Shown one piece after another: positions 6,701-24,650 of a DNA stretch of 64,000 nucleotides. Location of the stretch: assembly GCF_024223415.1 (NCBI RefSeq), contig NZ_CP100500.1. One strand, written 5' to 3'. Under the pieces are notes generated by a model, which saw only the letters and a list, made by a program, of their open reading frames with translations, made no database searches and had not been told where the DNA came from. The position numbers were made by a program, and so were the translations under genes. The stretch comes from Escherichia coli. Its GTDB lineage: Bacteria > Pseudomonadota > Gammaproteobacteria > Enterobacterales > Enterobacteriaceae. How positions within the stretch are numbered: position 1 is the stretch's first letter; the number at the start of each line of letters is the position of its first letter.

Positions 6701-6770
6701 CAAAAACACTCCCTTTTGAGTGGTTAAAGTAGTGAGATAATGTGGGGAAGATTTGAGAGATAACCCGCCC

Positions 6771-7430: not shown

Positions 7431-9268
7431 TAAACTGCCCTCACAATATAATTAAAAGCGATATTGCGCGGTCTGATCGCTATCCATCTGTCTTTTTCAT
7501 TACTCACCAGCTTACCGGCTCTGGCTATTGCCCATCTGTCAACTGGTTTTGTGCCGTACAGGATGCCGTTACCGGTTCTGGGTTGATCAGGGGTTATGTT
7601 TATGATGTCGTTATCATGTGATGCAAATGAAATCCCTGCCTGAATATCTGCACCTCCCGCTACGCCGTGGTACGCCTGTATGGAGGTACAAATATATGTT
7701 GCTTCCTGTGTGGATAACAATAAGCGTCCCCTGTCAATCATTCGCAGGTCATCCCATCCACGAATAAATTCCCCGCGCAAATCTGGTAGCCTGAGGTCAG
7801 GGTAGGCCACCGCCAGTTTTGGGTATTTTGTACGCGTGAATGCGGCACCGTTGCACTGTAACCACCCCTCAGGTGGTCTTGACGAAGGCCACGGAACGGG
7901 TACGCCAACTGGCAGCGTCGAGCCTTCTCCTAAACCAAGGTAATCAAGAATATCTTTTATGCTTTGTTTACCCATGATGACGCGGGCAACAGACGAAAAA
8001 ACAGGGGCGTCTGTGATCTGAGCCCAGCGATGAGTGTGGGCTGCCGAGGCTTTGCTGTTGGCAAGGTCATACGCAGCTTTAACAGCTTTTGGTGTGGCCG
8101 CCAGCATTTCGGAATTGCTGTTTGTGGCGCTGCTTAGCTGTACGATGCCTTTGCGTCCGGTGGTTGCATCCTGTCCTGTATACTTGCTCGTCAGCATATC
8201 GTGTAAGGCTTTAACCGCTTTGGGGGTGGCGGCCTCAGTCTCTGACTCACTGTTTGTGGCACTGCTCAGCTGTACGGTGCCTTTTGCCGTCAGCGAGGCT
8301 GATGGCACACCTGTTATCTGATTCCACGGGTGGGTGTGGCTGGCGGGTGCTTTACCGGCTGCAAGGTCATATGCAGCCTTGACGGCTTTTGGTGTGGCCG
8401 CCAGCGTTTCGGAATTGCTGTTTGTGGCGCTGCTCAGCTGTACGATGCCTTTGCGTCCGGTGGTTGCATCCTGTCCTGTATACTTGCTCGTCACCATATC
8501 GTGTAAGGCTTTAACCGCTTTGGGGGTGGCGGCCTCAGTCTCTGACTCACTGTTTGTGGCACTGCTCAGCTGTACGGTGCCTTTTGCCGTCAGCGAGGCT
8601 GATGGCACACCTGTTATCTGATTCCACGGGTGGGTGTGGCTGGCGGGTGCTTTACCGGCTGCAAGGTCATATGCAGCCTTGACGGCTTTTGGTGTGGCCG
8701 CCAGCGTTTCGGAATTGCTGTTTGTGGCGCTGCTCAGCTGTACGATGCCTTTGCGTCCGGTGGTTGCATCCTGTCCTGTATACTTGCTCGTCACCATATC
8801 GTGTAAGGCTTTAACCGCTTTGGGGGTGGCGGCCTCAGTCTCTGACTCACTGTTTGTGGCACTGCTCAGCTGTACGGTGCCTTTTGCCGTCAGCGAGGCT
8901 GATGGCACACCTGTTATCTGATTCCACGGGTGGGTGTGGCTGGCGGGTGCTTTACCGGCTGCAAGGTCATATGCAGCCTTGACGGCCTTCGGTGTGGCGG
9001 CCAGTGTTTCAGAAGTGCTGTTTGTGGCGCTGCTCAGTTGGGTGAATCCTTTTTCTGTCAGTGTCGCGTCAGGGTGGTTACGGGAACGTGCGTGTTCAGC
9101 CAGTGACTGTGCGACTTCCTCCGTTTTCTTCTTCAGCCATTTCGTCCTGTTTGCCAGTTGCCGGGGGGCTCGATTTGATATCCCGTCTGCACCACCCAGA
9201 ACCGGATCTGATGTCTCCAGTTGATAGATATTTTCTTCCCACTTTTCTGTTTCATTCAGGTTTCCCAT
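7430..9268 (-). CDS. tail fibre protein (Mu S-like) with internal 100-aa repeats
   Basis: Repeated SSATNS..ETLAATPKAVKAAYDLA..HTHPW motifs; GGGAG RBS before ATG at 9268. Confidence 0.85.
   Translation of the reverse strand: MGNLNETEKWEENIYQLETSDPVLGGADGISNRAPRQLANRTKWLKKKTEEVAQSLAEHARSRNHPDATLTEKGFTQLSSATNSTSETLAATPKAVKAAYDLAAGKAPASHTHPWNQITGVPSASLTAKGTVQLSSATNSESETEAATPKAVKALHDMVTSKYTGQDATTGRKGIVQLSSATNSNSETLAATPKAVKAAYDLAAGKAPASHTHPWNQITGVPSASLTAKGTVQLSSATNSESETEAATPKAVKALHDMVTSKYTGQDATTGRKGIVQLSSATNSNSETLAATPKAVKAAYDLAAGKAPASHTHPWNQITGVPSASLTAKGTVQLSSATNSESETEAATPKAVKALHDMLTSKYTGQDATTGRKGIVQLSSATNSNSEMLAATPKAVKAAYDLANSKASAAHTHRWAQITDAPVFSSVARVIMGKQSIKDILDYLGLGEGSTLPVGVPVPWPSSRPPEGWLQCNGAAFTRTKYPKLAVAYPDLRLPDLRGEFIRGWDDLRMIDRGRLLLSTQEATYICTSIQAYHGVAGGADIQAGISFASHDNDIINITPDQPRTGNGILYGTKPVDRWAIARAGKLVSNEKDRWIAIRPRNIAFNYIVRAV
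7437..7469. repeat. 33-bp inverted repeat, copy B (inside the last codons of the tail-fibre gene)
   Basis: GCCCTCACAATATAATTAAAAGCGATATTGCGC; partner of 6771-6803. Confidence 0.7.
7985..9000 (-). repeat. in-frame tandem repeat, 300-bp unit, about 3.4 copies
   Basis: Near-identical 95-aa antisense ORFs at 8034, 8334, 8634 and 8934 reveal the 300-bp period; sense strand encodes repeated 100-aa units. Confidence 0.7.
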
Positions 9269-9270
9269 AA

Positions 9271-9849
9271 TCAACTTCTCCCGTGGTTATAACTGCCATC
9301 ATGGATGGCGGTATTGTTATAGCGAATGGCCACAGACTGATACTCCAGGCTGGCCAGATGGCAGCGGGCCGGTGCAAATGCAGTGAGCGTCTGACGCAGC
9401 ATCGCGGCCTGATCGTTAGTAATGGGCTGTTTCAGAATAACGCGATAAACCGCCCAGCCTGCTGTATCTCCATGAACAAACAGTCCGTTATGGCTGCGAT
9501 TGCCGTCGTAACTGAGACGACCTGTGCCTTCAATCAGATCCACTTCACCAAAGCCAAAACGGCGGATAACTTCCCGGATTGACCACGGCGTCCCTTTATA
9601 CCGGTGCAGTTCGATGGCTGCTTTTATAAGCATGCGGCGAACATCGTCCGATTCCGCCAGCTCCCAGCCATCGCCAGACAGTGAGAACTGCTCGCCCAGC
9701 CATGGCAGCGCGGAACTGTCGACGATATCGACGAGAAAGACCATCAGTACGCTCAGGTCGATGTTATCCAGCCGTCCTGCCAGTCTTCCCAGCGTCCTGA
9801 GACTGATATCACCCTCAAGCGGTGGCGGGAGTTGTAATGGCTCAGTCAT
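9271..9849 (-). CDS. baseplate/tail protein (P2 gpI-like, Mu gp48-like)
   Basis: 192 aa; position between baseplate J and tail fibre. Confidence 0.75.
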   Translation of the reverse strand: MTEPLQLPPPLEGDISLRTLGRLAGRLDNIDLSVLMVFLVDIVDSSALPWLGEQFSLSGDGWELAESDDVRRMLIKAAIELHRYKGTPWSIREVIRRFGFGEVDLIEGTGRLSYDGNRSHNGLFVHGDTAGWAVYRVILKQPITNDQAAMLRQTLTAFAPARCHLASLEYQSVAIRYNNTAIHDGSYNHGRS

Positions 9850-10945
9850 CAGACACTCCAGTCATGTTAAGTGTGATCGCCGTACAGTTTGCCCATTCGT
9901 TTTCTGCCACCACCCTCAGTGCCGGTGTCACCAGCTCAACCTGGTACACCCCGGAAACGGACAATGCACTGATAATCTGGCTGGGGACAATATCACGCCC
10001 CAGCGCGGTGGCACGTGATGCCACCCAGTTCTGTATGGCGCTGTTAGCGTTGTCCTTTACCAGCCTTGCATCCTGGTCACGATAGATCGTAATCCTGGCT
10101 TCAATGGTGTAATCCACCTTCACTGGTGTTTTAGCCCGCACGGTATCAGTGAGTGGTCTGACTTTTTCGTCCGAACAGAAACTCTCTACCAGCGTCAGAA
10201 CACCGCTGTCCGGCAGGCCGGTGCTCAGCAGCGGATAAATTTCTACTGTGCCGGGAACCGGGGAAAGTACAGCAACATCGACAATGCCGGGATGGGCCTG
10301 CATGGCATGAAAGCGGTATGCGCCACGGCTTCCGGCATTGGTGAATGACTCCGGGGCCAGCCTGATACGCTCCCGGAGCCTGTCATCGTCTTCCTGTTCT
10401 GAACCGCCGGAGCTGGCCGTCAGATTGCTCACCAGCAGGTCGACGTTATCAATCTCATCGAGTAACTGACTGACCTGCGCAGGTTGCCAGCCGTTACCAG
10501 CAGTACCGGGTTCGGTACAGGTGGCCGTGACATTGACCAGTAGCAATCCGGCCTTCAGTACCACATCTGTATCGGTGGCAAAAATAACGCTGTCGGAAGC
10601 GCTGACGCGGGTGCCTGCCGGGATCAGCACATCAATGGCCAGTGCCTCATCCACAGAGAACTGGAGCGTGGTGGTGGCAGGCTGCGCGGCAAGGCGGTAT
10701 ACACCGACCAGTTCACCGAGGTAATCAATCATCGGCTCACGGGCAAAGGCGACAAGATTCTGCTTTGCTGCCTCCTGTACCGCAACCCTGACCAGCATTT
10801 CGCGATAGGCCCACAGGTCAATCAGCAGACGTTCTGCCTGTGCCGGGTACAACGTTTTGCCGGTATCCGCTTCATATTTCGCAATTATTTCTGCCGTGAT
10901 TTTATCGGCATCGCGTTCAATAAAATCGGGTTCTGTCAGCGCCAT
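9842..10945 (-). CDS. baseplate J-like protein (Mu gp47-like)
   Basis: 367 aa; baseplate J family sequence and position. Confidence 0.85.
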   Translation of the reverse strand: MALTEPDFIERDADKITAEIIAKYEADTGKTLYPAQAERLLIDLWAYREMLVRVAVQEAAKQNLVAFAREPMIDYLGELVGVYRLAAQPATTTLQFSVDEALAIDVLIPAGTRVSASDSVIFATDTDVVLKAGLLLVNVTATCTEPGTAGNGWQPAQVSQLLDEIDNVDLLVSNLTASSGGSEQEDDDRLRERIRLAPESFTNAGSRGAYRFHAMQAHPGIVDVAVLSPVPGTVEIYPLLSTGLPDSGVLTLVESFCSDEKVRPLTDTVRAKTPVKVDYTIEARITIYRDQDARLVKDNANSAIQNWVASRATALGRDIVPSQIISALSVSGVYQVELVTPALRVVAENEWANCTAITLNMTGVSDD

Positions 10946-11283
10946 AGCAGCTCCTGAGTCCGGGTCTGTCCGTCTGAGCCTTTCCAGCTCACCCGGAGCG
11001 TAAGATGTTCGCCGTCGACGGCGGGTTTAACCGACATAAGCTGGCAGCGGGGTTCCCAGCGCCGGATGGCATCGACGGATTCGCGCACCACATGCGGAAT
11101 GGCCCGGTCTACAGGCCAGTCGATATAAAGATGCAGATTGCTGCCGAACTCCGGGCGATGCGGGTCGCTGCCGCGGGGAGTCCGCAGGATAATTTGAATC
11201 GCCTGCCGGATATCATCCAGCCCCCGGACAATTTCGCCGGGAGCCTGCAGGGCTGGTTGCCAGAATACTGAGGTGGTTTTCAT
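10936..11283 (-). CDS. baseplate protein, GPW/gp25 family (Mu gp46-like)
   Basis: 115 aa; family-typical sequence; overlaps J start. Confidence 0.8.
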   Translation of the reverse strand: MKTTSVFWQPALQAPGEIVRGLDDIRQAIQIILRTPRGSDPHRPEFGSNLHLYIDWPVDRAIPHVVRESVDAIRRWEPRCQLMSVKPAVDGEHLTLRVSWKGSDGQTRTQELLWR

Positions 11284-11339
11284 GGGGGCAGTATTGCCCC
11301 CGGGAAGTAAGCGCCGATATTAAAGGCGTTTAAGAAGGT

Positions 11340-11867
11340 TCAATGGGAATGGTGATTAGAGTTCTGACCATCAGCAAATATGTCACCCGTTGCATGGGCG
11401 CTTCCGTTGATTTCCAGATCACCATTGAGTGTCGCGTTGCCGTTGATTGTGGTAACTCCCGTGAGGTCAATGTCTTTCCCTTTGAGAGAGATATCAGCGG
11501 CAACCTCCACCACGATACGCTCAATACCTCCTCTGACCGTCAGCGTATGGGTCGCGCGGTTATAACTGAACTCCGCGCCATCAGCGTATTTCGTACCCCG
11601 GACGCTTTTATCACTGAACGGCGGTTTATCGACGTCTGAGTACACCGCGCCCAGAATAACACCGTCCTCGCCGTTGGCATCGAGCAGCACCTCAACCTGC
11701 TCCCCCACGTCAGGGAGCCAGTAATCCTTGTTATCCTGGGTATTGCGCTGCAGCACGTTAAGCCAGTTTGTGCGCAGGTTATCGCATTCAGGCAGACGAA
11801 CGCGGGCCTGAACCCTGTCGGCATCAACGGCACTGACCGTACCGACCTGACGAGTGACACCAGTCAT
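11340..11867 (-). CDS. baseplate assembly/spike protein (gpV-like, Mu gp45-like)
   Basis: 175 aa; N-terminal OB-like region then Gly/Asn-rich C-terminus. Confidence 0.75.
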   Translation of the reverse strand: MTGVTRQVGTVSAVDADRVQARVRLPECDNLRTNWLNVLQRNTQDNKDYWLPDVGEQVEVLLDANGEDGVILGAVYSDVDKPPFSDKSVRGTKYADGAEFSYNRATHTLTVRGGIERIVVEVAADISLKGKDIDLTGVTTINGNATLNGDLEINGSAHATGDIFADGQNSNHHSH

Positions 11868-13018
11868 TTTTTCTTCTCCTTAATCACCGTCGATGTACTG
11901 CCATCCGGGTGATAAACCGTGAGTTTCTGAGTTTTTTGTTTTTTCCCTCTTGTGACTGGCCCCCGTGCCACTTCCAGCTCTGTGGTGTAGCCGCTGTTAC
12001 GGTCAAACGCATGGCGGGCAGTGGTTATGAGCCATGGCCCGGATAACTGCCCAAAACCCACCAGTTCAATTTTGTTGCCTGCTGTCAGTTGAGGCGTTCC
12101 CGTCAGCGTCAGGGAGCCGTTCTGCTGGTATTCGTTATGTCTGGCCAGTGCTGAATCCGCTTTAATCCGGGCACTGTCCGGGTCGCTGACGCGGCTGTTA
12201 ACTTTAAGTGAGTCAGCGCTGGTAACCTTACCACCTTTGAGCTTTTTGTCGCTTTCACGGGTACCACCATCAGCTTCGTAGACGATCAGTTTTTTACTGC
12301 TGCTTTTCTGGTGTTTTACCTTTGCAGATTTATAGACCCGGTTGATGGTGTCACGCAGGGAAAAGCGGGCCACATCCTGCGGTTTTAACTGCCTGACCGG
12401 CTCCTGACTGCGCAGTGTGGCCAGATGAGAAAAAATCAACTGGTCACTGACCACTTTCACTGCATAACCATACTCGCTGGCCAGCCGGCGCAGAAAACCC
12501 ACGTCGGTTTCAGCATACTGGGTCACCCGGTCGATTCTGATGGACTCAATGCTGCCCACCAGTTTCAGTCGGTGCTTTCTGGCAATCCGCCCCGCAACAG
12601 CTGCCAGAGTGGTGTTCTCAAAACCACGGCTGGATTTAGTCCGCAGAGCACTGTTAACCGAGGTGGCCACCCCACGGATAGCGACAACGGACGCGGGCGA
12701 ACTCACTTCGATCTCGTCTATTGAGAATGTACCGCAGGACAGCAGTTTCTCGCCCTGATAACCCATTTTCAGCGTCAGCGTGTCACCCTTGCCCGGATAC
12801 CACTTATCCAGCCAGCGGCCATCGGTGTCGTCCAGCTCCACCTCAATGGTATCGGACTCATTTTTGATGTTATCGCTCCAGACCACACGGGTGACATAAG
12901 GCGCGATATCAGAGGTGATGTTTTTCTGCAGATACCACATAGTGAACACCGGCGTCAGCACCTCGCTGACGCCGGTTAACGCTGATGTGGCTTGCGCAGT
13001 GCTGTTTATCTCAGCCAT
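11864..13018 (-). CDS. tail/baseplate hub protein (P2 gpD-like, Mu P-like)
   Basis: 384 aa; conserved position after tail protein X. Confidence 0.75.
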   Translation of the reverse strand: MAEINSTAQATSALTGVSEVLTPVFTMWYLQKNITSDIAPYVTRVVWSDNIKNESDTIEVELDDTDGRWLDKWYPGKGDTLTLKMGYQGEKLLSCGTFSIDEIEVSSPASVVAIRGVATSVNSALRTKSSRGFENTTLAAVAGRIARKHRLKLVGSIESIRIDRVTQYAETDVGFLRRLASEYGYAVKVVSDQLIFSHLATLRSQEPVRQLKPQDVARFSLRDTINRVYKSAKVKHQKSSSKKLIVYEADGGTRESDKKLKGGKVTSADSLKVNSRVSDPDSARIKADSALARHNEYQQNGSLTLTGTPQLTAGNKIELVGFGQLSGPWLITTARHAFDRNSGYTTELEVARGPVTRGKKQKTQKLTVYHPDGSTSTVIKEKKK

Positions 13019-13221
13019 GGGGCAATATCCTCTTCTGTACGGGCATCTTCAGCCTCAATAACCGGGATCAGTAACAACAACCCGGAGGGCAGCACCGGCG
13101 TGATAGCCACGTGCGGATTGGCTGCAATAATCCGGGGATAGCCCAGCGGGTCACCGTAGTACTGCCATGCCAGCGAATCCCAGCGCTCTCCGTCACGGGT
13201 AATATGTTCAAGAAACATCAC
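13006..13221 (-). CDS. tail protein X-like
   Basis: 71 aa; small protein between gpU-like and gpD-like genes. Confidence 0.7.
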   Translation of the reverse strand: MMFLEHITRDGERWDSLAWQYYGDPLGYPRIIAANPHVAITPVLPSGLLLLIPVIEAEDARTEEDIAPWLR

Positions 13222-14102
13222 ACACTCCTCGTCAGTATTCTGGCGGCCATTGCACTTAATCGCGGAGACATGCGGTTGAATGCTGTGCCGGCGGCGTTAA
13301 GCTGCCCGGAAACGGTATCCAGAGCACCTGCAATATTTCTTTTGTCCACACCACTCAGCGCAGACTGTGCCTGCTGTATATACGTGGCTGCTTCGCTGGC
13401 TGTTCTGGCCAGACTGATGGCATCGGGCATGGATTCAGAGAGTGCATTAAATGCCGGCACACTTTTCCCCAGAGCGCCGGATATATTACCCAGTCCGCTC
13501 ATCAGTCCCGGCACACGGGTCAGCGCGACAACGGGGTTATCCTTCATTTTCTGCGCCACCCGAACGGCACTGATGGTGGTCTGGAGTACAGACTGCGCCT
13601 GTTTCGCATAGTTGACACCGTTGCGGATGAACTGTGCCCCCCCGGAAGGCGATGGAACGGCACCAGATACGGCCCCGGCACCGGGAACCTGCCTGCGTAT
13701 TGCCGGTGGTTTCAGGGGATTCTTCGGGTCACCGGTGTATTCCCGGAGAGACACGGTTGCGCTGACAGCCAGTACGTTGCCGGTACTGTCAGTCTGCTCG
13801 CTGGTTGCAGTCACATCGGTAATCACGAACCAGGCGCGATAGTCACCGTTGCCGAAGACCAGCGCCAGTGCCTGATGGGCTTTCATGGCTGCCCGAAGTC
13901 TCGCCAGCTCCACGTCGGGCACACAATAATGCTGATGGAAGACCAGACTTATCTGGATTTCGTCCAGCCTGTCGCCGACGAACTGCAGACCGGGCTTACT
14001 CCCGATGCGGGCATGCTCCGCATAATCGACGCCAGACGTGGCCTCGAAGCCGTCCCAGTAGGTAATCAGCTCAAACTCAATATCACCCAGTACGGCAAAC
14101 AT
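13218..14102 (-). CDS. tail protein (P2 gpU-like / Mu N-like)
   Basis: 294 aa; immediately downstream of the tape measure gene. Confidence 0.65.
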   Translation of the reverse strand: MFAVLGDIEFELITYWDGFEATSGVDYAEHARIGSKPGLQFVGDRLDEIQISLVFHQHYCVPDVELARLRAAMKAHQALALVFGNGDYRAWFVITDVTATSEQTDSTGNVLAVSATVSLREYTGDPKNPLKPPAIRRQVPGAGAVSGAVPSPSGGAQFIRNGVNYAKQAQSVLQTTISAVRVAQKMKDNPVVALTRVPGLMSGLGNISGALGKSVPAFNALSESMPDAISLARTASEAATYIQQAQSALSGVDKRNIAGALDTVSGQLNAAGTAFNRMSPRLSAMAARILTRSV

Positions 14103-17100
14103 CAGCGGTACTCCTTACGTTGTTTCTGAGCCAGCAGACGCTCCAGCATTTTTTCCAGCTCATGCAGACTCATATTCAGGGCACCAGTCAGTCCTGCAGG
14201 CGCTGTGGTTTCCCTGCCATTGAGGAAAAACTGAGGATTAAAGCTGACCTGGATACCACCAGACGTTCCACCGCCGGTTGCAGCTGCACCACGGCCTGAA
14301 TATCCGGCAGCCAGGATTTCAGGCGAGGGGATACGGGGAATATCCGGTGCCATCTCATTTGCCAGACGTTGCCCTGGTAAAATCGATGCCCGGGTGGAGA
14401 GCGGAATAGCGGGCATGGAAGACAAACTATTGATTACGGCTCCGATCGCATTTTTAGCAGACGACATAAACCCATTGATATCGGGCAACGGCATACTGAA
14501 GCGAACACCTGAAGTGTTATCCCGTATTTCTGGCCCCTGAATGCTCACGGGCATTTTGGGGAGCAGTTCACTGGCCATTCGCTGCCCGGCCAGAGCTGCA
14601 AGCGGAGTAGTCCGCTGCAGGCCAATGGCGGCCCCCTGCGCGATATTGTCGCCAAAGACCATAAACACGCGGCTCGGCGAATGAATGCCCAGCTTTTCGC
14701 TGAACCAGCCACTGATGCTGTCACCCATTCCGGTTACACTGGATTTGAGCGACTCCCATTTGTTTTTGATACCGTTAATCAGACCATCGACAAGATGGCC
14801 ACCGAAGTCGGTAAACTTTGCCGGCAGATCAACACCAAGATATTTCATCGCAGCTGCAAAGGCTTTATAGAGCAGACCTGCCGGCGACCAGTTAATCAGC
14901 AACTTACCAGTTCCCACAATGCCGCCGTTAAAGGCTTCCTGAATGTCAGCCCAGCACTGTTTAAACCAGCTACTGATGCTGTCACCCATTCCGGTTACAC
15001 TGGATTTGAGCGACCCCCATTTGTTTTTGATACCGTTAATCAGACCGTCGACAAGATGGCCACCGAAGTCGGTGAACTTTGCCGGCAGAGCAACGCCGAA
15101 ATATTTCAGCGCAGCTGCAAAGGCTTTATAGAGCAGGCCTGCCGGCGACCAGTTAATCAGCAACTTACCAGTTCCCACAATGCCGCCGTTAAAGGCTTCC
15201 TGAATGTCAGCCCAGCACTGTTTAAACCAGCTACTGATGCTGTCACCCATTCCGGTTACACTGGATTTGAGCGACCCCCATTTGTTTTTGATACCGTTAA
15301 TCAGACCGTCGACAAGATGGCCACCGAAGTCGGTGAACTTTGCCGGCAGAGCAACGCCGAAATATTTCAGCGCAGCTGCAAAGGCTTTATAGAGCAGGCC
15401 TGCCGGCGACCAGTTAATCAGCAACTTACCAGTTCCCACAATGCCGCCGTTAAAGGCTTCCTGAATGTCAGCCCAGCACTGTTTAAACCAGCTACTGATG
15501 CTGTCACCCATTCCGGTTACACTGGATTTGAGCGACCCCCATTTGTTTTTGATACCGTTAATCAGACCGTCGATAAGATGGCCACCGAAGTCGGTGAACT
15601 TTGCCGGCAGAGCAACGCCGAAATATTTCAGCGCAGCTGCAAAGGCTTTATAGAGCAGACCTGCCGGCGACCAGTTAATCAGCAGCTTACCAGTTCCCGC
15701 GATACCGCCGTTAAAGGCTTCCTGAATGTCAGCCCAGCGCTGTTTAAACCAGCCACTGACTGCCCCCCAGTTGCGGTAGATAAGGTAAGCTGCTGCCGCG
15801 ACAGCGGTGATAACGAGACCGATGGGATTCATCATCAGCGCCCGGCCAATCCAGAGAACGGCACGCCCGGCGATCATAATGCCGCGAACCAGTCCCCCGG
15901 AGAGCACACCACCCAGTGTTCTGACTCCTCTGGCGACGGCACCAAAGCCGGTCACCAACCAGCGAAGCTTACCGCCTTCCCCCAGTGCAAGCGTCAGACG
16001 AAGCCAGTTGGTCCGGAGTAAAACAGCAGTTTTCCAGACGTTCACAAAGGGGGAAATAAGGAGATTCAGCCCCAGTTTGAGACCAATAGTCGCTATCTTA
16101 ATCGCAAGGAGCGCACTGATGAGCTTAAAAGCCCCACTGACAAATTGCGGGTGAGTCGCCACCCAGTGTTTTGCCCCCTGAATGACTGGGATCAGCTCCT
16201 GAGTCAGAGAAATAAAAGAAGGGGCGAGCTGATCGCCCAGCGTAATAGCCAGATCGCGACTGCTGACCATAAGCGCTTTAGTGGCTTCAAGGGGAGATTT
16301 CAGCCGCTGATCGTAAGCACTGGCAAGCAAATCGTTATCCGCAGCCCTGAGAGCACCGGCACGGATCTCGCGATATCTGTCCATGTTGGCCAGCATCGGG
16401 CGGATAAATGCCATGACCTGCATATCCGCGAACATATCGCCCAGACCAAAGTTTTTCGCCAGAGCCTGAAGTGCCTCATCTCTTGCCGTATCATTCTTTA
16501 TTTTCATGGCGGATTTGAAGCCGGCCAGCGCTTCGGGGCTTTTGGCATTGAGGTAACGTTCTATAACACTCAACATCCCTTCAATCGGAGAGATCCCCGC
16601 AGCCTTATAACTCGCAACAGAACCCTGCAAATCAATACCCAGATCAGCAAACTGTTTCTGAGTATCGCGGGCAAAAATTTTGGTAAGAAAGTTTTTAAAA
16701 TTATTGGCTGCTTCGTCGGTGGAGCCCGCACCGATTTTTGCTACCTGGAGACTGGCCCCGATTTCAGCAACAGCCTCTTTTCCACTGGCAATACCCGCCA
16801 TCATTGGGGCCAGGGACTGCATCCACTTGACCTGATCCGGGATTTCAAATGACCCCTGGTCACCGGCATAAGCCATAATATTCTGGACGGCACTAAAATC
16901 TCTGGCGGCACCTTTCAGGGAGTTTTGCCAGACTGCGGCCACTTTTGCCCAGTCCTGAGATGACGTGCGTGTTGCCGTTGCCGCGCGGGCAATATCCGGC
17001 ATCAGAAAACCGATATCTGACAAGTTATCAATATTGTCGCTGATGAGCGAACCCACCGCCTCCTGCAGTTCATCCTGATACTGATTGTATTTTAGCGCCC

Positions 17101-17575
17101 AGCCTTTTATCTGTCCGGCAAGTGCATCCCGCGTTTTATTGTCATATTTTGCGGTGATCGACATATCAATCATTTTGTCCTGAAAAGACATGGACTGCTG
17201 AACGGCAGGGGAAACCGTATGATAAACAGTCTGTGCCATGCCATACGCTTCAATCCCCTGACCATACAGCGCCATGCGGTTAGCTTTCAGCGCATCACTG
17301 GTGGCTGATGCCGCTGACAGACGGCGCTGCTGGCGCTCAATTTGCTCCATGGTGCGGCTTACCCGCAGCAGCTCGCTGTTGAGATGCTGCATCCGGGAAG
17401 AGCCCAGTTGACCATAACGTTCTGTTGCACGGGTTAAAGCGTTCTGACGTTCCTGCAGGCGGCGTGAGGTATCGCTCAGGGAATCAAGCGCACGGCGGGT
17501 ACCGCTCATTGCAGAACGGAATGTGCTGCCAATCATCCCGCCGATAACAACGCCGACTGAAAACTGTCCCGACAT
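14102..17575 (-). CDS. tail tape measure protein with five tandem 87-aa repeats
   Basis: About 1157 aa; coiled-coil N-terminus, hydrophobic core, repeated WFKQCWADIQEAFNGG... unit; start taken at ATG 17575 with GGAGG RBS (track ORF extends to 17635). Confidence 0.85.
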   Translation of the reverse strand: MSGQFSVGVVIGGMIGSTFRSAMSGTRRALDSLSDTSRRLQERQNALTRATERYGQLGSSRMQHLNSELLRVSRTMEQIERQQRRLSAASATSDALKANRMALYGQGIEAYGMAQTVYHTVSPAVQQSMSFQDKMIDMSITAKYDNKTRDALAGQIKGWALKYNQYQDELQEAVGSLISDNIDNLSDIGFLMPDIARAATATRTSSQDWAKVAAVWQNSLKGAARDFSAVQNIMAYAGDQGSFEIPDQVKWMQSLAPMMAGIASGKEAVAEIGASLQVAKIGAGSTDEAANNFKNFLTKIFARDTQKQFADLGIDLQGSVASYKAAGISPIEGMLSVIERYLNAKSPEALAGFKSAMKIKNDTARDEALQALAKNFGLGDMFADMQVMAFIRPMLANMDRYREIRAGALRAADNDLLASAYDQRLKSPLEATKALMVSSRDLAITLGDQLAPSFISLTQELIPVIQGAKHWVATHPQFVSGAFKLISALLAIKIATIGLKLGLNLLISPFVNVWKTAVLLRTNWLRLTLALGEGGKLRWLVTGFGAVARGVRTLGGVLSGGLVRGIMIAGRAVLWIGRALMMNPIGLVITAVAAAAYLIYRNWGAVSGWFKQRWADIQEAFNGGIAGTGKLLINWSPAGLLYKAFAAALKYFGVALPAKFTDFGGHLIDGLINGIKNKWGSLKSSVTGMGDSISSWFKQCWADIQEAFNGGIVGTGKLLINWSPAGLLYKAFAAALKYFGVALPAKFTDFGGHLVDGLINGIKNKWGSLKSSVTGMGDSISSWFKQCWADIQEAFNGGIVGTGKLLINWSPAGLLYKAFAAALKYFGVALPAKFTDFGGHLVDGLINGIKNKWGSLKSSVTGMGDSISSWFKQCWADIQEAFNGGIVGTGKLLINWSPAGLLYKAFAAAMKYLGVDLPAKFTDFGGHLVDGLINGIKNKWESLKSSVTGMGDSISGWFSEKLGIHSPSRVFMVFGDNIAQGAAIGLQRTTPLAALAGQRMASELLPKMPVSIQGPEIRDNTSGVRFSMPLPDINGFMSSAKNAIGAVINSLSSMPAIPLSTRASILPGQRLANEMAPDIPRIPSPEILAAGYSGRGAAATGGGTSGGIQVSFNPQFFLNGRETTAPAGLTGALNMSLHELEKMLERLLAQKQRKEYR
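14640..15750 (-). repeat. in-frame tandem repeat, 261-bp unit, about 4.5 copies
   Basis: Antisense ORFs at 14685, 14943, 15204 and 15465 are near-identical; sense strand repeats an 87-aa unit. Confidence 0.7.
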
Positions 17576-17650
17576 AGTGGTTAACCTCCGGGGAAGGTGA
17601 AAAGACGTGAGGGGATAACGCAGAACAGCCGCCACTGGCGGCTGTCTGTA

Positions 17651-17735
17651 CTACGATTTGTCGCCGTACTCGCTTTTGATTTGCTCTTCAGCCTGCTCCA
17701 GCCACATCTCCAGATCGTCAGTATCGAGGGCATCA
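17651..17735 (-). other. frameshift extension of the tail assembly chaperone (+1, equivalent to -2, frame)
   Basis: Overlapping ORF 17651-17908 is offset by +1 from the chaperone frame; a GGGGG run lies just before the chaperone stop. Confidence 0.5.
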
Positions 17736-18068
17736 ATCTCCCCCGGCTGAAACCGGAACCATCTCGCCAGCAGCCCCTGCGCCTGCGTCAGCGCCCTGGT
17801 TGCTCTCACCCATCCCCGTGATGAGCTGAAATCGTTTCTGTAACTGCAGGTAATCAGCCAGATCCATATTGTCGAGATCTTCCGGGAGAAGACCAGTACT
17901 GCGGGCAATCAGCGGTTCGTCCCAGTCTGCCGGGTTTTTGCTGATTTTGCGCACCTGCTTCAGGTCTTTTACCGTCAGGCGTTTCAGTTCAACCTGCTCA
18001 ATTCTGGTGCCTGCAGCAGTGGTGAAGGGATAAGACAATTTAAAAGTATCGGATGGGGTCTGTGACAT
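17733..18068 (-). CDS. tail assembly chaperone (P2 gpE-like)
   Basis: 111 aa; sits between tube and tape measure genes as in P2/Mu tails. Confidence 0.7.
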   Translation of the reverse strand: MSQTPSDTFKLSYPFTTAAGTRIEQVELKRLTVKDLKQVRKISKNPADWDEPLIARSTGLLPEDLDNMDLADYLQLQKRFQLITGMGESNQGADAGAGAAGEMVPVSAGGD

Positions 18069-18165
18069 GATTGTGCTCCTGTGTAAGTTCAGGGCAGTAT
18101 GTCGGGAGAAGCGCGTGACGGATATTAAAGGAGATTAAGAAGAAGGGGCCGGAGCCCCTGTGATG

Positions 18166-18447
18166 TCAGCAAGTGCGAAAACCCTTGCAGTTACGCAGGA
18201 AAGCGATGAGAAGCGTCTTTCCCTCAGATTTGCCGGTGCCGGAGAACCAGTGGTCAGGCGGCTCCCATGCTTCAATCAAATCGGCCAGTTTGCGGGCCTT
18301 TGAACGTGTGCAGTCAATCGGGTCATTCGTTTTCTGTGTATTAAACAGCGTTTCAACCCCGGGAATATCCAGGATTGCAAACCACGTACCGTTTGACATG
18401 CCCAGTGACGCACAGCGCCCCCCTTTGTCAGTCAGTTCAACGCTCAC
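18166..18447 (-). CDS. hypothetical protein
   Basis: 93-aa ORF with GTG start and GGAGG RBS 6 nt upstream, between tube and chaperone genes. Confidence 0.5.
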   Translation of the reverse strand: MSVELTDKGGRCASLGMSNGTWFAILDIPGVETLFNTQKTNDPIDCTRSKARKLADLIEAWEPPDHWFSGTGKSEGKTLLIAFLRNCKGFRTC

Positions 18448-18449
18448 CG

Positions 18450-18971
18450 TCAGCCTCCGATATTGATACGGTAGTCAGTCAGTTGATCAACGCCACCGAC
18501 GCGGAAGATGTTAGCCAGGTAGTCCAGTTGCAGCAGCTCTTCACCATCCAGTACCTGTCTGATATACGTGCAGGTGAAGCTACTGGAGAACTCGGCGTTC
18601 TCGTGCTGTTTGAACGTCCCCAGCGGGTTCTTCTTGAACATAATCGTCAGGAAGGTGACCAGCGGGATTTCGTCAATCAGCCCCTGCGAGCTGTAGCGCT
18701 GGACGCTGGAGCGACACTGCAGTGCCAGAGACCTGTACGGGTTCGCGACAGACAGCATCGCATCGCGGTAAAAGCTGTTCCATTTGATTTCGCCTTCCAG
18801 TTTGTCAAAACCAGCCGGGAGTTCCACCTTACCCACCATCCCCAGCGCCTTGTGTTCCTGCATAATCATGGAGACATCGGGGAGTTTAACTTCCTCAGCC
18901 CGTCCCAGCAGGTTAGTACCATCCAGATAGATGTTGGCATTCGTGATGCGGTTTATCTCAATCTTTGACAT
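18450..18971 (-). CDS. major tail tube protein (Mu M-like)
   Basis: 173 aa; start overlaps sheath stop (ATGA). Confidence 0.8.
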   Translation of the reverse strand: MSKIEINRITNANIYLDGTNLLGRAEEVKLPDVSMIMQEHKALGMVGKVELPAGFDKLEGEIKWNSFYRDAMLSVANPYRSLALQCRSSVQRYSSQGLIDEIPLVTFLTIMFKKNPLGTFKQHENAEFSSSFTCTYIRQVLDGEELLQLDYLANIFRVGGVDQLTDYRINIGG

Positions 18972-20398
18972 CAGTTGCCCCCTTTCAGGGTTAACAGGTA
19001 TTCCGAGGTGATCTCAGTCTCATACGTCAGTCGCTCCAGCGGTGGCGGCGGCGTGTATTTGTAGCTCAGCAACAGGTGACCGGCTGCCAGTTCCGTCTCC
19101 GGATTACGGGCCGGATCAAACCAGCAGTTGAAACCCAGCAGCGCACCATCACTAATCATCTTTCGACCGTAGGCGTTGACCGACTCCGTCAGTGCATCAA
19201 TCAGCGCCTGAGTAATCGGCATGTCGATGTACTGCTGACTGAAGTAACGAATGGACTCGTTGATCACATCACCGGTGCGGCGAACGTTCTCAAAGTTACG
19301 CATATGGGTGACCGTTGGCCATGCTGCCGTCCGGTTACCCCACAGACGAAGGCCGCTGCCATAACTGCTGAATACCGTGGTGATCCCCTGTTCGTTAAGC
19401 AGGTTCACCTCACTCTGCGGGTCATCAATCATCGCGGACAGCTGGCGCTCCACACCGGTGATCCCCAGAATCTCCTGATTGGAGGACGACCACCAGTAGC
19501 CCTTGTCCAGATCGACTCTGGCACGCAGACCTGCTGCACGCTGGCTGAGCGGCTCCAGACGCTCCGTGTTTGTCACCGGGTCATATACCTTCACATGCGG
19601 ATAGCACAGACGGACGCGGTCGGAGCTGGTATTGAAGTTAATGGTGCCTTCCGGGCCACGACCTGCCAGAGCCTGTGCAAAGGTGGTACCGACAGGCGCA
19701 TCAATGTAGGTTACCGCGCCCAGCTTCTCTGTCATGGCGATAAGCTCAACTGCGACACTCTTCTGGGTGCAGAACACCGGCGCAATCAGAATTTTGGCAA
19801 AATAGCCGTACAGGTTGAAGCTGTCGTTAAGCAGCTTCATGCCGGTTCGGTTTCCGGCGCTGTTCACCCCGCCGATGATGTCCGCCGCAGTCACCTTCGA
19901 CGGGTCCGCGTACTCATAGCTCACCTTCACGCTGCCACTGGCCTCAATAGCCTTGCCCAGGTTCGTGAGCACACCCGTCTGCGCATCAACACGGTAGTCC
20001 GTGTTCGCCGTGTGGGTGGTGCTGCCTTCACTGTTTTTCACCACCACATTAGCGACAACCGGATGCGCCAGTCTGGCCTGCCCTGTCGATTTGTCAAAGG
20101 TAACCACTTCACCCTGGATCGCCGTTTTATGTTTCGCCGGGTCGAGGACGTTAATGACCAGAACGGTGCCTGCACCATGGTCATAAATCGCATCCAGCGC
20201 CTGCGGAATGGTAAAGCCGGTGAACTGGCTGCCAAATGCCGCTGCGTCTTTCTCAGACAGGCACTGTACCAGCGTATTGACGTCCCCCATCGGGGCGGTA
20301 CCAATCAGGCCAATAACGGCAGATTTCACCGTTTTAACCGGGCGGGCTCCGTTTTCCACCTCAATGGTTTCGACGCCATGCAGATAGTTAGCTGCCAT
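18971..20398 (-). CDS. tail sheath protein (Mu L-like)
   Basis: 475 aa contractile sheath family. Confidence 0.85.
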   Translation of the reverse strand: MAANYLHGVETIEVENGARPVKTVKSAVIGLIGTAPMGDVNTLVQCLSEKDAAAFGSQFTGFTIPQALDAIYDHGAGTVLVINVLDPAKHKTAIQGEVVTFDKSTGQARLAHPVVANVVVKNSEGSTTHTANTDYRVDAQTGVLTNLGKAIEASGSVKVSYEYADPSKVTAADIIGGVNSAGNRTGMKLLNDSFNLYGYFAKILIAPVFCTQKSVAVELIAMTEKLGAVTYIDAPVGTTFAQALAGRGPEGTINFNTSSDRVRLCYPHVKVYDPVTNTERLEPLSQRAAGLRARVDLDKGYWWSSSNQEILGITGVERQLSAMIDDPQSEVNLLNEQGITTVFSSYGSGLRLWGNRTAAWPTVTHMRNFENVRRTGDVINESIRYFSQQYIDMPITQALIDALTESVNAYGRKMISDGALLGFNCWFDPARNPETELAAGHLLLSYKYTPPPPLERLTYETEITSEYLLTLKGGN

Positions 20399-20642
20399 GG
20401 GAGTCCTCCGTTTTCACTTCGCTGTCACTGCTGCTTCTGCGCTTTGGTGACTGCACAGCCGGTGCGCCGGCGGGTTTAGTCTCTTCTGGTACCGGCGTCA
20501 GGTGCTTCAGTGCCACCAGTACCTTCACATAGTCATGCTCCTCCGGCAGGGAAACAGTCTTCCCCGGCCAGAGCAGGATTTCGGTTCCGTCCGACAGCGT
20601 GACGCCGCTGGCCGGGCCGGAATAGCGGTATGCTTTCATCAC
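20388..20642 (-). CDS. small Mu-like virion protein
   Basis: 84-aa ORF directly upstream of the sheath gene. Confidence 0.55.
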   Translation of the reverse strand: MMKAYRYSGPASGVTLSDGTEILLWPGKTVSLPEEHDYVKVLVALKHLTPVPEETKPAGAPAVQSPKRRSSSDSEVKTEDSHGS

Positions 20643-21103
20643 TCGCTTTCCTCATAGTTCACTTCGGTTAACAGCGGGCCGGACGGTAAATCGCTGTCTT
20701 CGATAAAGACGCTTTCAGTCGCGAAGTCGAGGGCGTATTGCCACAGCCCCCTGACTTCACCGATAAACACCTCGCGGGTCAGCCAGATACGACGGCGGCA
20801 GCCGGGCGGGGTGTAGCCACCGAGAATGCGGCGGACAGCATCCAGGACATTAATCGCCCCTTTTTTACCGTTGAGCTGGCGGAAGACCACCGTGACGCAG
20901 AGCTGGATAGTCTGAGGCTGGATCACCGCACCGGTATCATCCGGCCTGTCAAAGCGCGAACCGGCATAGCTCAGCAGCAACGCGCCAACCGGATGGTTCA
21001 GGCGATATTCAGCCGGTTTCTCCGGGAAGTACTCCACCTGCAGTTGCGGCAGCTTCTCGCGTAACCGGGCCAGTACCGCATCAAGGACGGGCAGAACGTT
21101 CAT
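20639..21103 (-). CDS. Mu gp37-like head-tail joining protein
   Basis: 154 aa; conserved position. Confidence 0.6.
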   Translation of the reverse strand: MNVLPVLDAVLARLREKLPQLQVEYFPEKPAEYRLNHPVGALLLSYAGSRFDRPDDTGAVIQPQTIQLCVTVVFRQLNGKKGAINVLDAVRRILGGYTPPGCRRRIWLTREVFIGEVRGLWQYALDFATESVFIEDSDLPSGPLLTEVNYEESE

Positions 21104-21549
21104 CAGTATTTCTCCAGTAAACCGTCACGACCGCCGAAAGTGGCCGGGCGACTGCGTACACGAAACTCTCCTGGCTCAGGCACATCTTTCTGAGTGGACG
21201 GCAGCCCCAGCGTGAGCCTGTTATCACGTAACTCCCTGAGTTGCCGCAGCGCTTCTTTGTGGTCATCCTTCACCGTATCCGGGAGGTCACCTTCCGGGCG
21301 GCGGGCGTAGAGCCGGTAACGGACCAGCGTGATGGCAATGTCCCGCAGAACGGTCGGTATCTCCGCCAGCGGCAGGATATAGCGTCCGCGCAGATGGGCA
21401 TCAATCAGCTCGTCGGCATAGCGGATACAGCTGTCCACCACACGGGTATTCACTGTTGCAGGCGAGTCGAAGTCCATATCTTCACTGGTGAGCTCGATCA
21501 GCGTTCGTTCCGGCACCTGCGCAAGCAAATCCTCCAGGGTGCAGTACAT
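21103..21549 (-). CDS. Mu gp36-like protein
   Basis: Start set at ATG 21549 (MYCTLEDLL...), immediately after the stop of the upstream gene. Confidence 0.6.
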   Translation of the reverse strand: MYCTLEDLLAQVPERTLIELTSEDMDFDSPATVNTRVVDSCIRYADELIDAHLRGRYILPLAEIPTVLRDIAITLVRYRLYARRPEGDLPDTVKDDHKEALRQLRELRDNRLTLGLPSTQKDVPEPGEFRVRSRPATFGGRDGLLEKY

Positions 21550-21550
21550 C

Positions 21551-21886
21551 TCACACCCCGCGCAGGATACGGATGATGTCGCCTTCGGCCTTTGCCTCAT
21601 CCAGTGCAATGCCACAGGATTTACCACTGTCAGCCTGAGGAACAGCCCTTGATTTGGCATCAGACTGTACCAGTGCCCCTCTGGAAACTGCCGCTCCCGT
21701 TTCAACTGCAAGGATCCCAGTCACACTCACCGGGGTCAGATCACCTGCACGGGCATCCACCTGGGCGACACCGACGGCAACGGCACCCTGCTTACATGCG
21801 CCGTTATCTGCTCCCACAAACCTCTGCTGAGTAAGTGCAGTACTGGCTGTGACTGTCATGGTCAGAGTGACCTGCTGTGTAGTCAT
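21551..21886 (-). CDS. small Ala/Val-rich head-associated protein
   Basis: 111-aa ORF between major head and gp36-like genes. Confidence 0.5.
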   Translation of the reverse strand: MTTQQVTLTMTVTASTALTQQRFVGADNGACKQGAVAVGVAQVDARAGDLTPVSVTGILAVETGAAVSRGALVQSDAKSRAVPQADSGKSCGIALDEAKAEGDIIRILRGV

Positions 21887-21896
21887 AGACTTCTCC

Positions 21897-22850
21897 TTAC
21901 TTCACTATATTTGTAACGAGATAACCGGCATCCCCGCCCACGACCGCCACCTTATAGATGTCGGTATAACGGCAGTACTTCACCTTTCCGCCCACTCCAT
22001 CGTATTTATCTGCCACCGGCATCCCCTTACGTCGCAGGGTATACCCGAACGATGGTTCATTTTCGTCGGCACTTTCGGCACCTTCTCGCGGTGGAGTGAC
22101 ATAGAAGAGCATGAGATTATCTCCCCAGATGTCCACCGGATATTTGTTCCGGTTGCCTGCATCAGTCATGGATGCCATGGAAACAGGCTCACCCACAATG
22201 ACCTTGTCCAGACCAAAAAGCTCCCTGAGGATTTGCGGGGTGATCCGTTTTCTCTCATTAAGTCCCAGAGCAGTGGTGATGGCTGGATGATATCTCAGCA
22301 GGGGCATCACACTGGCTCCCATGACCATCAGATTGGGTCTGACCCCGATCTTACTTCGCACAGCTTCAATGCCTCCCTCAATGACCTCAACAGGATCACC
22401 ATGGCCTCCTTCCCAGCGTTCAACAGACGTCATCGTCTTTACCGAAGATGCCGGGTACACTTTTTTGTCCTGCGCAAGACGGGCAGCAATAAGCTCACGG
22501 CGAAGATGAATGCCATTTGTCACCCGCCGGATTGCCTTGGCCTCTTCGTTGAACATTGACTCCGTCTGTTCACGGTAGTCCACAGGTGCAGCAAGATCGT
22601 GCTCATGCAACACCAGATCCAGCGTACTGCTCTTTTCCCTGATCAGAACATTACTGTCTGCCCCCACAGCACGGACGGTATCAACTTCCACAAACGCTGA
22701 TCTCCCGAAAACGGGGACCGTTACCGCTTCTTTGTCCGTATACACAACCGGAAATATATGTTCTCCGATGAAGGCTGCATTCCTGTAGCCACGCGCGATG
22801 CTGGTCATAACAGGATCAACAACGCGTTTACTTTTTAAGTAATCAGACAT
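21897..22850 (-). CDS. major head subunit (Mu T-like)
   Basis: 317 aa; Mu-type major capsid protein sequence. Confidence 0.85.
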   Translation of the reverse strand: MSDYLKSKRVVDPVMTSIARGYRNAAFIGEHIFPVVYTDKEAVTVPVFGRSAFVEVDTVRAVGADSNVLIREKSSTLDLVLHEHDLAAPVDYREQTESMFNEEAKAIRRVTNGIHLRRELIAARLAQDKKVYPASSVKTMTSVERWEGGHGDPVEVIEGGIEAVRSKIGVRPNLMVMGASVMPLLRYHPAITTALGLNERKRITPQILRELFGLDKVIVGEPVSMASMTDAGNRNKYPVDIWGDNLMLFYVTPPREGAESADENEPSFGYTLRRKGMPVADKYDGVGGKVKYCRYTDIYKVAVVGGDAGYLVTNIVK

Positions 22851-22859
22851 GCTTTCTCC

Positions 22860-23975
22860 TTACAGGCAGCGTGTGACAGCAGCCTCATAGCTGATGCCTT
22901 CTTTTTTCGACAGTTCCACAGCCTTCTGGTGCAGTGCCAGACGGTCAGGGTCGGCTTCTGCAAACTCCGTCACATCCACTTTCACCGTGTCGCCGACACG
23001 CTCCTTCGTGGCCTGTTCGGCGAAGTTCATCACCGGCTCCCCGTCGGAGAGCAGCGAACGGAAGGCGGTGGCCAGCGGTGTGCGGCTTTCCCCCTCAGCA
23101 AACTCCACCGGCTTGTCGCCACCGGCGACGGCATCCAGCAGGGCAACCACCACGGAGGAGGCGCGGGGAGCCAGACGGCCCTCTGCGACCAGTTTTTCTG
23201 CAAAGGCCACATTGTCCTTATGCAGTTGCTCCTGTCTGACCTGTGCATCACGCGCATCGCGATCAGCAGCCTGCTGCTTCAGGCGGCGGTTCTCCGCCTG
23301 AAGGGCTTCAATCTCTTCTTTTGTCATCGATGATTCCTCGTTACTTGCGGAAGACGGCACCTGGCCTGTCTCACTGAATTGCGCACCTGCTGCATCCTGC
23401 GACGGTGTGTCGCGGTACGCCTCTTCGCGCAGACTGTTGAGCTGCCATTCCGGCAGAACTTTTTCTGCTTCGTCCAGACTGAAGCGGGCGATCAGAAAAT
23501 CGCGCAGCTTTCCCCACAGTGAGGCATTCGTGATGGCCTGCCAGTCGGCGAACTCCACCACACCTTCTTCCTGCTCACTGAAGGAGACCTGTTTCAGCCC
23601 CTTGACGGAAGGTGGCTGTGCCCCGAGAAAGCCCACATGGCGCAGGTAGAGCACGCCGGGCTTCGGATTGGACGGTGAATCCGGGAGGTAGAAAGAGGCA
23701 GACACTTTTTTGAATCGTCCGTCGGTGACCATCTCAGCAAACTGCGGGTCCAGCTGGGCAGGCTCTGCCATCAGATCGACGCCGCTGAGCGACAGGGCTT
23801 TCACCCAGCCCCACGCCGGGTCTTCCGTTCTGGGATGACCAATCACGAGTGGTGCTTCATGGACGGACGGGTCATAGGCTTTCACGCAGGCGGCAAGATC
23901 GTCTGGCGTGAACGGCAGTTTTTTGCCGTGCATATCGGTATGAGTACCGGCTTTAAAAATGTGAATGGCTGACAT
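22860..23975 (-). CDS. head maturation protease / scaffold (Mu I-like)
   Basis: 371 aa; protease N-domain plus coiled-coil, acidic C-terminal scaffold region. Confidence 0.8.
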   Translation of the reverse strand: MSAIHIFKAGTHTDMHGKKLPFTPDDLAACVKAYDPSVHEAPLVIGHPRTEDPAWGWVKALSLSGVDLMAEPAQLDPQFAEMVTDGRFKKVSASFYLPDSPSNPKPGVLYLRHVGFLGAQPPSVKGLKQVSFSEQEEGVVEFADWQAITNASLWGKLRDFLIARFSLDEAEKVLPEWQLNSLREEAYRDTPSQDAAGAQFSETGQVPSSASNEESSMTKEEIEALQAENRRLKQQAADRDARDAQVRQEQLHKDNVAFAEKLVAEGRLAPRASSVVVALLDAVAGGDKPVEFAEGESRTPLATAFRSLLSDGEPVMNFAEQATKERVGDTVKVDVTEFAEADPDRLALHQKAVELSKKEGISYEAAVTRCL

Positions 23976-24648: not shown

Positions 24649-24650
24649 TG

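Follow-up and report, generated by a model that had tools for sequence, protein, structure and literature searches.

A variable-number tandem repeat in the tail tape measure gene of a Mu-like Escherichia coli prophage

We have analyzed a 64,000-nucleotide stretch of Escherichia coli DNA (contig NZ_CP100500.1 of assembly GCF_024223415.1), hereafter called the window, and describe a tandem repeat within the tail tape measure gene of a Mu-like prophage. The gene carries four in-frame copies of a 261-bp unit that encodes 87 amino acids (aa), and related prophages carry one, two or three. The array is probably a variable-number tandem repeat (VNTR) within a working tail-length ruler, a reading to which we assign a probability of about 0.75. 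Copy number differs by whole units among close alleles, internal copies are chimeric, and evolution within the array is concerted. Outside the array, the ratio of nonsynonymous to synonymous substitution rates (dN/dS) between alleles is 0.16-0.21, and the tape measure gene is under purifying selection (dN/dS ~0.2).

The array and its alleles

Tandem Repeats Finder reported one array at 14703-15759 with a period of 261, 4.0 copies, 97% matches, no indels and a score of 1988. Copies were phased on the protein, and the array and its boundaries are as follows.

14102-17575, minus strand: tail tape measure protein gene, 1157 aa (open reading frame (ORF) list, PHROG and Pfam; start from the annotation of phage PhiKM and E. 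coli LR-31)
14708-15751, minus strand: array of four in-frame 261-bp (87-aa) units (Tandem Repeats Finder, copy boundaries and cross-allele copy comparison)
15491-15751, minus strand: copy c1, phased on the protein
15230-15490, minus strand: copy c2, phased on the protein
14969-15229, minus strand: copy c3, phased on the protein
14708-14968, minus strand: copy c4, phased on the protein
15747-15759, minus strand: upstream copy of the 13-nt boundary homology TCAGTGGCTGGTT, encoding ..SG/WF (boundary comparison; coincides with the Tandem Repeats Finder array limit)
14703-14715, minus strand: downstream copy of the same 13-nt homology (boundary comparison)

Copies c2 and c3 are identical (0 of 261 nt differ), while c1 differs from c2 at 7 nt and from c4 at 15 nt, and c2 differs from c4 at 10 nt. 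The longest exact self-match at an offset of 261 extends over 436 nt, which is far above chance for 64 kb. An earlier reading of the sequence alone had described an in-frame 261-bp repeat and quoted an 87-aa unit with near-perfect copies; both descriptions hold, and the quoted unit is exactly the sequence of c2 and c3. Its estimate of about 4.5 copies has to be lowered to 4.0, and the five-copy structure of which it also spoke is contradicted by the count of only four units. The candidate half or fifth copy was discarded, since the 87 aa that follow the array mismatch the unit at 78 of 87 positions and have in common with it only the initial WF, which belongs to the 13-nt boundary homology. 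The array start that had been placed at 14640 falls ~65 nt beyond the array end, within the non-repeated WFSEKLGIHSPSRVF region. A plus-strand ORF at 14681-16021 (446 aa) and four plus-strand ORFs of 61-62 aa were rejected as genes and regarded as shadow ORFs of the stop-free repeat.

The tape measure gene was found by megablast in 635 of 5,426 complete E. coli genomes. It spans 3534, 3273 or 3012 bp, values that lie multiples of 261 apart, and a ~88%-identical group spans 2454 bp. Every allele examined at the fetched loci was open and in frame, and the alleles form the following series.

1 copy, 821 aa: E. coli 8178, E. coli 21KM1392 and the Klebsiella phage KP12 contig
2 copies, 983 aa: A20 and the sequence type 131 (ST131) strain 5506
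3 copies, 1070 aa: EC11 and SCU-101
4 copies, 1157 aa: the window and LR-31

Length polymorphism among related Mu-like prophages had been predicted, and the comparison bore this out with one, two, three and four copies. The expansion was also correctly called recent, as the copies are 94-100% identical, and no homologues with a multi-copy structure of diverged copies were found in the E. coli lineage.

Alleles were counted in the same 5,426 genomes using flank-only queries, whose matching pieces were joined only if the gap was no longer than half of the query length plus 500 bp. The gap between the flanks is 551, 812 or 1073 bp for two, three or four copies, respectively. Two copies or fewer were present in 468 genomes and three or fewer in 585, with three-copy alleles in about 117 genomes and a ratio of two-copy to three-copy alleles of ~80% to ~20%. 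A further ~49 genomes contain the divergent single-copy type or partial matches. With 1200-nt flanks, 584 records reached at least 80% coverage, compared to 585 with 700-nt flanks; the longer flanks drop a few mosaic prophages, and the four-copy count therefore rests on the identity and span of the LR-31 match instead. Among the matches listed, LR-31 has the only four-copy allele, being the only match of at least 99% identity and the only 3534-bp span among the 40 best and 60 spread matches. The best 120 proteins of 5.8 billion searched all have two or three copies, and the exact 1157-aa protein is encoded in two more assemblies, GCA_013421655.1 and GCA_958326765.1. Alleles of five or more copies were not found in the genome and protein searches, and the window allele, with four copies and 1157 aa, is the longest known in the lineage. 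A one-copy allele of the close type (expected length 896 aa) was not seen; the one-copy alleles found all belong to the ~88%-identical group, which has a shorter C-terminus.

The repeat has practical consequences, in that it breaks short-read assemblies and causes intact genes to be called pseudogenes. The Prokaryotic Genome Annotation Pipeline (PGAP) marks three-copy tape measure genes as two 'incomplete' pseudogene fragments, and the ORF of SCU-101 is an uninterrupted 1070 codons; these labels are apparently an annotation artefact of the repeat. In Escherichia phage PhiKM (PQ738613.1, 11521-14386), which is the only deposited phage isolate of this type, the record describes the tape measure gene as 'disrupted by sequencing gap', and the position of the gap is exactly that of the repeat. 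The contig OM835952.1 ('Klebsiella phage KP12 clone KP12_2') is filed under Vequintavirinae and contains a P2/Mu-type tail module with the one-copy 821-aa protein, at 86% DNA identity to the E. coli prophage. It appears to be prophage DNA caught up in the assembly, not a segment of a Vequintavirinae genome.

Origin and growth of the array

Across alleles, first copies begin with WFKQR and end in ...YFGVAL...KWGSLK...ISS, while last copies begin with WFKQC and end in ...YLGVDL...KWESLK...ISG. In single-copy alleles, the ancestral WFKQR start is joined to a YLGVDL...E...G/D end. Internal copies have a 5' part of the last-copy type and a 3' part of the first-copy type, and such hybrids bear the signature of unequal crossover between a last copy and a first copy, being the chimera that this exchange would be expected to leave. 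The internal copy of EC11 is nearly a duplicate of c1 and has a different crossover point, which argues for an independent expansion. In every multi-copy allele, the internal junction (...ATCAGT/AGC TGGTTTAAACAG...) is the join predicted from the one-copy boundaries at the shared TCAGT, and in one-copy alleles the core shared by the two boundaries is TCAGT...CTGGTT. This agreement points to a founding duplication that was probably mediated by microhomology at TCAGT.

Alleles that differ in copy number may otherwise be very similar. The gene flanks of EC11 (three copies) and the ST131 strain (two copies) differ by 0.6%, and those of SCU-101 (three copies) and A20 (two copies) by 1.8%; background divergence between alleles is 3-5%. 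Between the window and LR-31, 5 sites differ in 2430 flanking nt and 8 in the 522 nt of c2 and c3, with none in c1 or c4. In two further loci, L011 and L012, most of the differences from the window fall at positions 92 and 113 of the unit, in c2 and c3, and toggle between states found in other copies. Judged from these alignments, the differences in the internal copies are the pattern of intra-array conversion. They show that c2 and c3 of the window became identical after its lineage and that of LR-31 had separated.

From these observations we infer the following recombination mechanism. In a one-copy ancestor, illegitimate crossover at the TCAGT microhomology that flanks the unit would have produced two copies, and the 261-bp copies could then have served as the substrate for homologous unequal crossover or replication slippage. 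Whole in-frame units would be gained or lost in this way, with hybrid internal copies as the result, and gene conversion would continually reshuffle the internal copies.

Natural variation in the number of 11-aa, aromatic-marked units has been described in tape measure proteins (Belcaid, Bergeron and Poisson 2011, PMC3271669). As in those proteins, tandem units have here been duplicated and lost in nature, and their history can be reconstructed from related phages; unlike them, the present unit is 87 aa (261 bp) long, its copies are 94-100% identical in DNA, and its population frequencies can be counted. At this degree of identity, homologous unequal crossover is the likely driver. The same module occurs in other tape-measure lineages (clusters P0122, P0123 and others). 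A one-unit search of 1.84 billion representative proteins returned 583 clusters at E <= 0.001, and the best 150 of these included 123 with one near-full module, 24 with two, one with three and one with four. The copies in 26 multi-copy clusters, which have two to four modules per protein, are 30-70% identical and spaced 48-114 aa apart, and represent old, independent duplications, in contrast to the E. coli lineage, which alone has near-identical copies and ongoing polymorphism. The module is widespread and was repeatedly duplicated in the distant past, with near-identical copies only in the E. coli lineage.

Tail length and competing explanations

The identification of the gene as a tape measure gene, already made in the sequence-only reading, is well supported. 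It matches the PHROG tape measure family phrog_28 (E = 1.9e-132), as well as more than 15 other tape-measure families, its homologues carry the NCBI name 'phage tail tape measure protein', and it lies directly after the tail chaperone pair and before gpU/X/D-like tail-completion and baseplate genes. The open frame at 14102-17635 comprises 1177 codons, with an upstream extension to a GTG at 17635; annotated homologues start at 17575, giving a protein of 1157 aa that begins with MSGQFSVG. The sole Pfam match in the protein is PF10145, far upstream of the array, and no Pfam domain was found for the 87-aa unit. The array lies between a hydrophobic central segment and the C-terminal GIHSPSR region.

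16541-17101, minus strand: PhageMin_Tail domain PF10145, aa 159-345 (Pfam)
14663-14689, minus strand: conserved GIHSPSRVF motif directly after the array (40-sequence alignment; aligns to chain 6v8i_CF of the 80alpha tape measure protein)

In the 40-sequence alignment the module shows the conserved pattern W..AF.GG...NWSP.GL...LP.KF..FG...GL..GI...WFK..LGI.SPSRVF. G41, P54, P74, F77 and G81 are invariant, as are S122, P123 and S124 of the GIHSPSRVF region, and the NWSP.GL motif is nearly so. An AlphaFold2 model of residues 845-1001 built on this alignment is ~90% helix, with a mean predicted local distance difference test score (pLDDT) of 82.8 and a predicted template modelling score (pTM) of 0.40, indicating that the modelled segment is non-globular. 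The model is elongated and mainly alpha-helical over these residues, with predicted helix breaks at GG, SP and GVDLPAK. A profile search of the PDB matched residues 918-1074 of the 1154 in the tape measure protein of Staphylococcus phage 80alpha (6v8i, chain 6v8i_CF; E = 2.8e-14), and two other tape measure proteins also matched. This alignment puts the array close to the end of the ruler that faces the baseplate. The similarity to 80alpha gp57 (PDB 6v8i, 9mu2) covers both module and GIHSPSR, in the same C-terminal, baseplate-proximal position. Unlike the present phage, 80alpha is a siphovirus of a Gram-positive host, and its protein has short W-marked repeats upstream and no near-identical 87-aa units.

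If the ruler works as in other phages, the tape measure protein would be extended within the tail tube, and polymerisation of tube and sheath would stop at the end of the protein. In lambda gpH (Katsura and Hendrix 1984) and in the tape measure protein (TMP) of TP901-1 (Pedersen 2000; Mahony 2016, PMC5099701), tail length responds linearly to engineered duplications and deletions; in TP901-1, deletion of 347 residues shortened the tail from 118 to 65 nm (PMC5099701). A value of 0.15 nm per residue is given in a paper on prophages of the adherent-invasive E. coli (AIEC) strain LF82, which includes no Mu-like phage of this type (PMC9928086), and the Mu-like myovirus KS10, with an 811-aa tape measure protein and a ~140-nm tail, gives 0.17 nm per residue (PMC2628397). 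Over this range, an 87-aa unit corresponds to 13-15 nm, by which each extra unit would lengthen the contractile tail. The same calibrations predict the following tails.

1 copy: predicted tail about 123-142 nm
2 copies: predicted tail about 147-170 nm
3 copies: predicted tail about 160-185 nm
4 copies: predicted tail about 174-200 nm

Like lambda gpH and the TP901-1 TMP, which are associated with ~0.15 nm per residue, the protein is long, helical and encoded after a frameshifted chaperone gene. Those two systems are engineered siphoviruses, in contrast to the natural series of one to four units that segregates in E. coli prophages and belongs to a contractile-tailed Mu-like phage, for which the tail lengths are predictions. 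A further parallel is YscP, the type III secretion needle ruler, in which, in work ascribed to Journet et al. in 2003, internal repeat duplications and deletions reportedly change the length of a tubular nanomachine linearly; protein and machine are unrelated to the array, and the analogy is mechanistic only. The locus is thus a known phenomenon with a larger, near-identical unit, found in a Mu-like myovirus prophage and with countable frequencies.

The distribution of the phage bears on whether the long allele is functional, as do the dN/dS outside the array and the open frames of all alleles examined. From 27575 down to exactly 6063, the prophage of GCA_013421655.1 matches that of the window at 99.95% identity, and then continues into another host locus (a DeoR regulator and an MFS transporter). 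The prophage of locus L013 keeps its identity with the window up to exactly 6063. The LR-31 prophage lies in yejF and has an 18-kb late region that is 99.0% identical to the window. Near-identical four-copy phages therefore occupy three insertion sites, the iol ABC ATPase gene, the DeoR/MFS locus and yejF, which implies that a phage with the full four units integrated separately at each site. The pattern indirectly supports compatibility of the long ruler with phage spread.

Several points weigh against a working ruler that lengthens the tail. The tail-length effect is a prediction from the ruler rule. The helix breaks at GG, SP and GVDLPAK could let the module fold back, so that each residue would add less than 0.15 nm. 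The four-copy allele is rare, at 1 of ~586 close alleles in complete genomes, with nothing longer seen, and long alleles could be mildly disfavoured. Finally, the frameshifted invertase gene of the window prophage is a sign of some decay.

One alternative is that the extra copies lengthen the protein and leave the tail unchanged, in which case copy number would affect some other property. The module might fold as helical hairpins, lie outside of the length-determining part, or do something else, for instance bind a chaperone or form a membrane or periplasm conduit for DNA. These possibilities would suit the three helix breaks per unit and the low pTM of the model, a degree of conservation that is unusually high for a mere spacer (the five invariant residues and NWSP.GL), and the position of the module directly after a hydrophobic segment and before GIHSPSR. 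We know of no tape measure protein whose tail length ignores an internal in-frame insertion. In addition, the 821-aa single-copy relatives are close in length to the KS10 protein (811 aa, with a 140-nm tail), and in TP901-1 deletions in the repeat and hydrophobic regions both shortened the tail linearly (PMC5099701). An unchanged tail is accordingly unlikely, and a VNTR in a length-determining ruler remains the preferred reading.

It is also conceivable that the array is a contingency locus, in which high-frequency gain and loss of units samples tail lengths in ~13-15 nm steps. We regard this as a rather doubtful addition to the ruler reading. If true, the many phage genome copies of replicative transposition would favour unit gain and loss, lengths might be selected on hosts that differ in capsule or O-antigen thickness, and the coexistence of two- and three-copy alleles at ~80:20 would be accounted for, along with the spread of a four-copy lineage to several hosts.

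Neutral copy-number noise in decaying prophages that make no particles is very improbable. The split of the window invertase gene over three frames, the annotation of LR-31 fibre genes as pseudogenes and the pseudogene labels on many three-copy tape measure genes would all suit decay. However, the labels are apparently artefactual, as illustrated by the uninterrupted ORF of SCU-101, the dN/dS is that of a constrained gene (0.16-0.21), and nearly all of the length differences sampled amount to exact multiples of 261 bp. Moreover, the four-copy phage has inserted at three sites, with its ends intact and the target duplicated, and PhiKM was deposited as a phage isolate.

That the copy number arose through misassembly, by a wrong count of units in a 1-kb array with identical inner copies, is scarcely credible. 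In favour of a miscount, c2 equals c3, the 436-nt exact repeat exceeds short reads, PhiKM has its sequencing gap exactly at the repeat and the GCA_958326765.1 contig breaks inside another (fibre-gene) repeat. Against it, the usual error of assemblers is to collapse repeats, not to expand them, and four copies occur in four independent assemblies (the window, LR-31, GCA_013421655.1 and GCA_958326765.1), among which LR-31 is a complete genome with distinguishable internal copies and GCA_013421655.1 provides a 1.37-Mb contig.

Tail-length rulers are textbook biology, yet the evidence has been obtained almost entirely with mutants engineered in a few siphoviruses. The present alleles form a natural, nearly isogenic series of one to four units, in a prophage family found in ~12% of complete E. 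coli genomes, including ST131 strains. This series could be used to test the ruler rule in a Mu-like myovirus, together with the effect of tail length on infection of encapsulated hosts. The rise of a tail tube ring is ~4 nm, at which one unit would correspond to ~3.3 rings, and the series could show how a non-integer increment is rounded. A literature search for the virion dimensions of PhiKM returned only phiKMV-type matches.

The prophage and neighboring genes

The array-bearing prophage was delimited by its junctions and by reconstruction of the empty site, and the principal features outside of the tape measure gene are as follows.

6063-43681, no strand assigned: BcepMu/Mu-like transposable prophage, 37,619 bp, with TG...CA ends (junctions, empty-site reconstruction)
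6057-6062 and 43682-43687: 6-bp target-site duplication GGTGCG (junction sequences)
17733-18068, minus strand: tail assembly chaperone gene (gpE / Phage_TAC_7; PHROG phrog_166, Pfam PF10109)

The junctions read ...CAAGA GGTGCG [TGATGCG...TCTGATCA] GGTGCG TAAGC..., and the prophage ends are TGATGCG...TGATCA. The interrupted gene encodes a sugar ABC-transporter ATPase, with its N-terminal part from 4840 and its C-terminal part at 43671-44012. It sits in a myo-inositol cluster (iolD, iolG, iolC), and excision of the prophage in silico restores it whole. The reconstructed empty site is matched at 99% or more, as one uninterrupted piece, in 44 complete E. coli genomes, from which it follows that the host is E. 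coli and the insertion private to the window strain.

The Mu-like nature of the prophage, which had also been proposed from sequence, is confirmed by a transposase followed by an ATPase, Mu-type head genes (Portal_Mu, Phage_Mu_F, Mu_Gp36 and Gp37), the TG...CA ends, the 6-bp target duplication and the multiple insertion sites. The transposase is a 589-aa, rve-type protein encoded at 35776-37545, which IS481/IS21 transposase models match only below curated cut-offs; its LR-31 orthologue carries the annotation DDE-type integrase/transposase/recombinase. Among deposited phages, PhiKM is the closest and is assigned to Bcepmuvirus. The prophage is mosaic, with a late region (8807-27012) 99.0% identical to LR-31 and lysis and early regions at 90-94%; the segment 27012-28443 gave no megablast match in the LR-31 comparison.

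The tail genes are ordered sheath (18971-20398), tube (18450-18971), chaperone E/E' (17651-18068), tape measure, gpU-like (13218-14102), gpX and gpD-like (11864-13018), with baseplate genes also among the downstream neighbors of the tape measure gene. The E' frame (17651-17908) overlaps E and is offset from it by +1/-2, not -1, and a CCGGGGGAG run lies shortly before the E stop codon. A 'GpE family' ORF is annotated in relatives. In phage Mu, the corresponding chaperone gene undergoes -2 frameshifting (PMC5009743), and the CCGGGGGAG run and the offset of E' would fit a -2 frameshift as in Mu.

A Gin/Cin-type serine invertase gene (6141-6784, minus strand) is broken over three frames (6647-6784, 6364-6519 and 6141-6395), and the window prophage lacks an alternative fibre segment. 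Relatives have an intact 190-aa recombinase and alternative fibre ends on the opposite strand, like the G segment of Mu. A second in-frame tandem array, at 8061-9037 in the tail-fibre gene (7430-9274, minus strand), contains 3.3 copies of a 300-bp (100-aa) unit at 98% identity, each with two 'QLSSATNS.SE..AATPKAVK' motifs, and it is within this fibre-gene array that the GCA_958326765.1 contig ends. Covariation of the fibre array with tape-measure copy number was considered and rejected, as the 300-bp array is missing from LR-31 and from two- and three-copy prophages and present only in the window and its 99.95%-identical relative (GCA_013421655.1).

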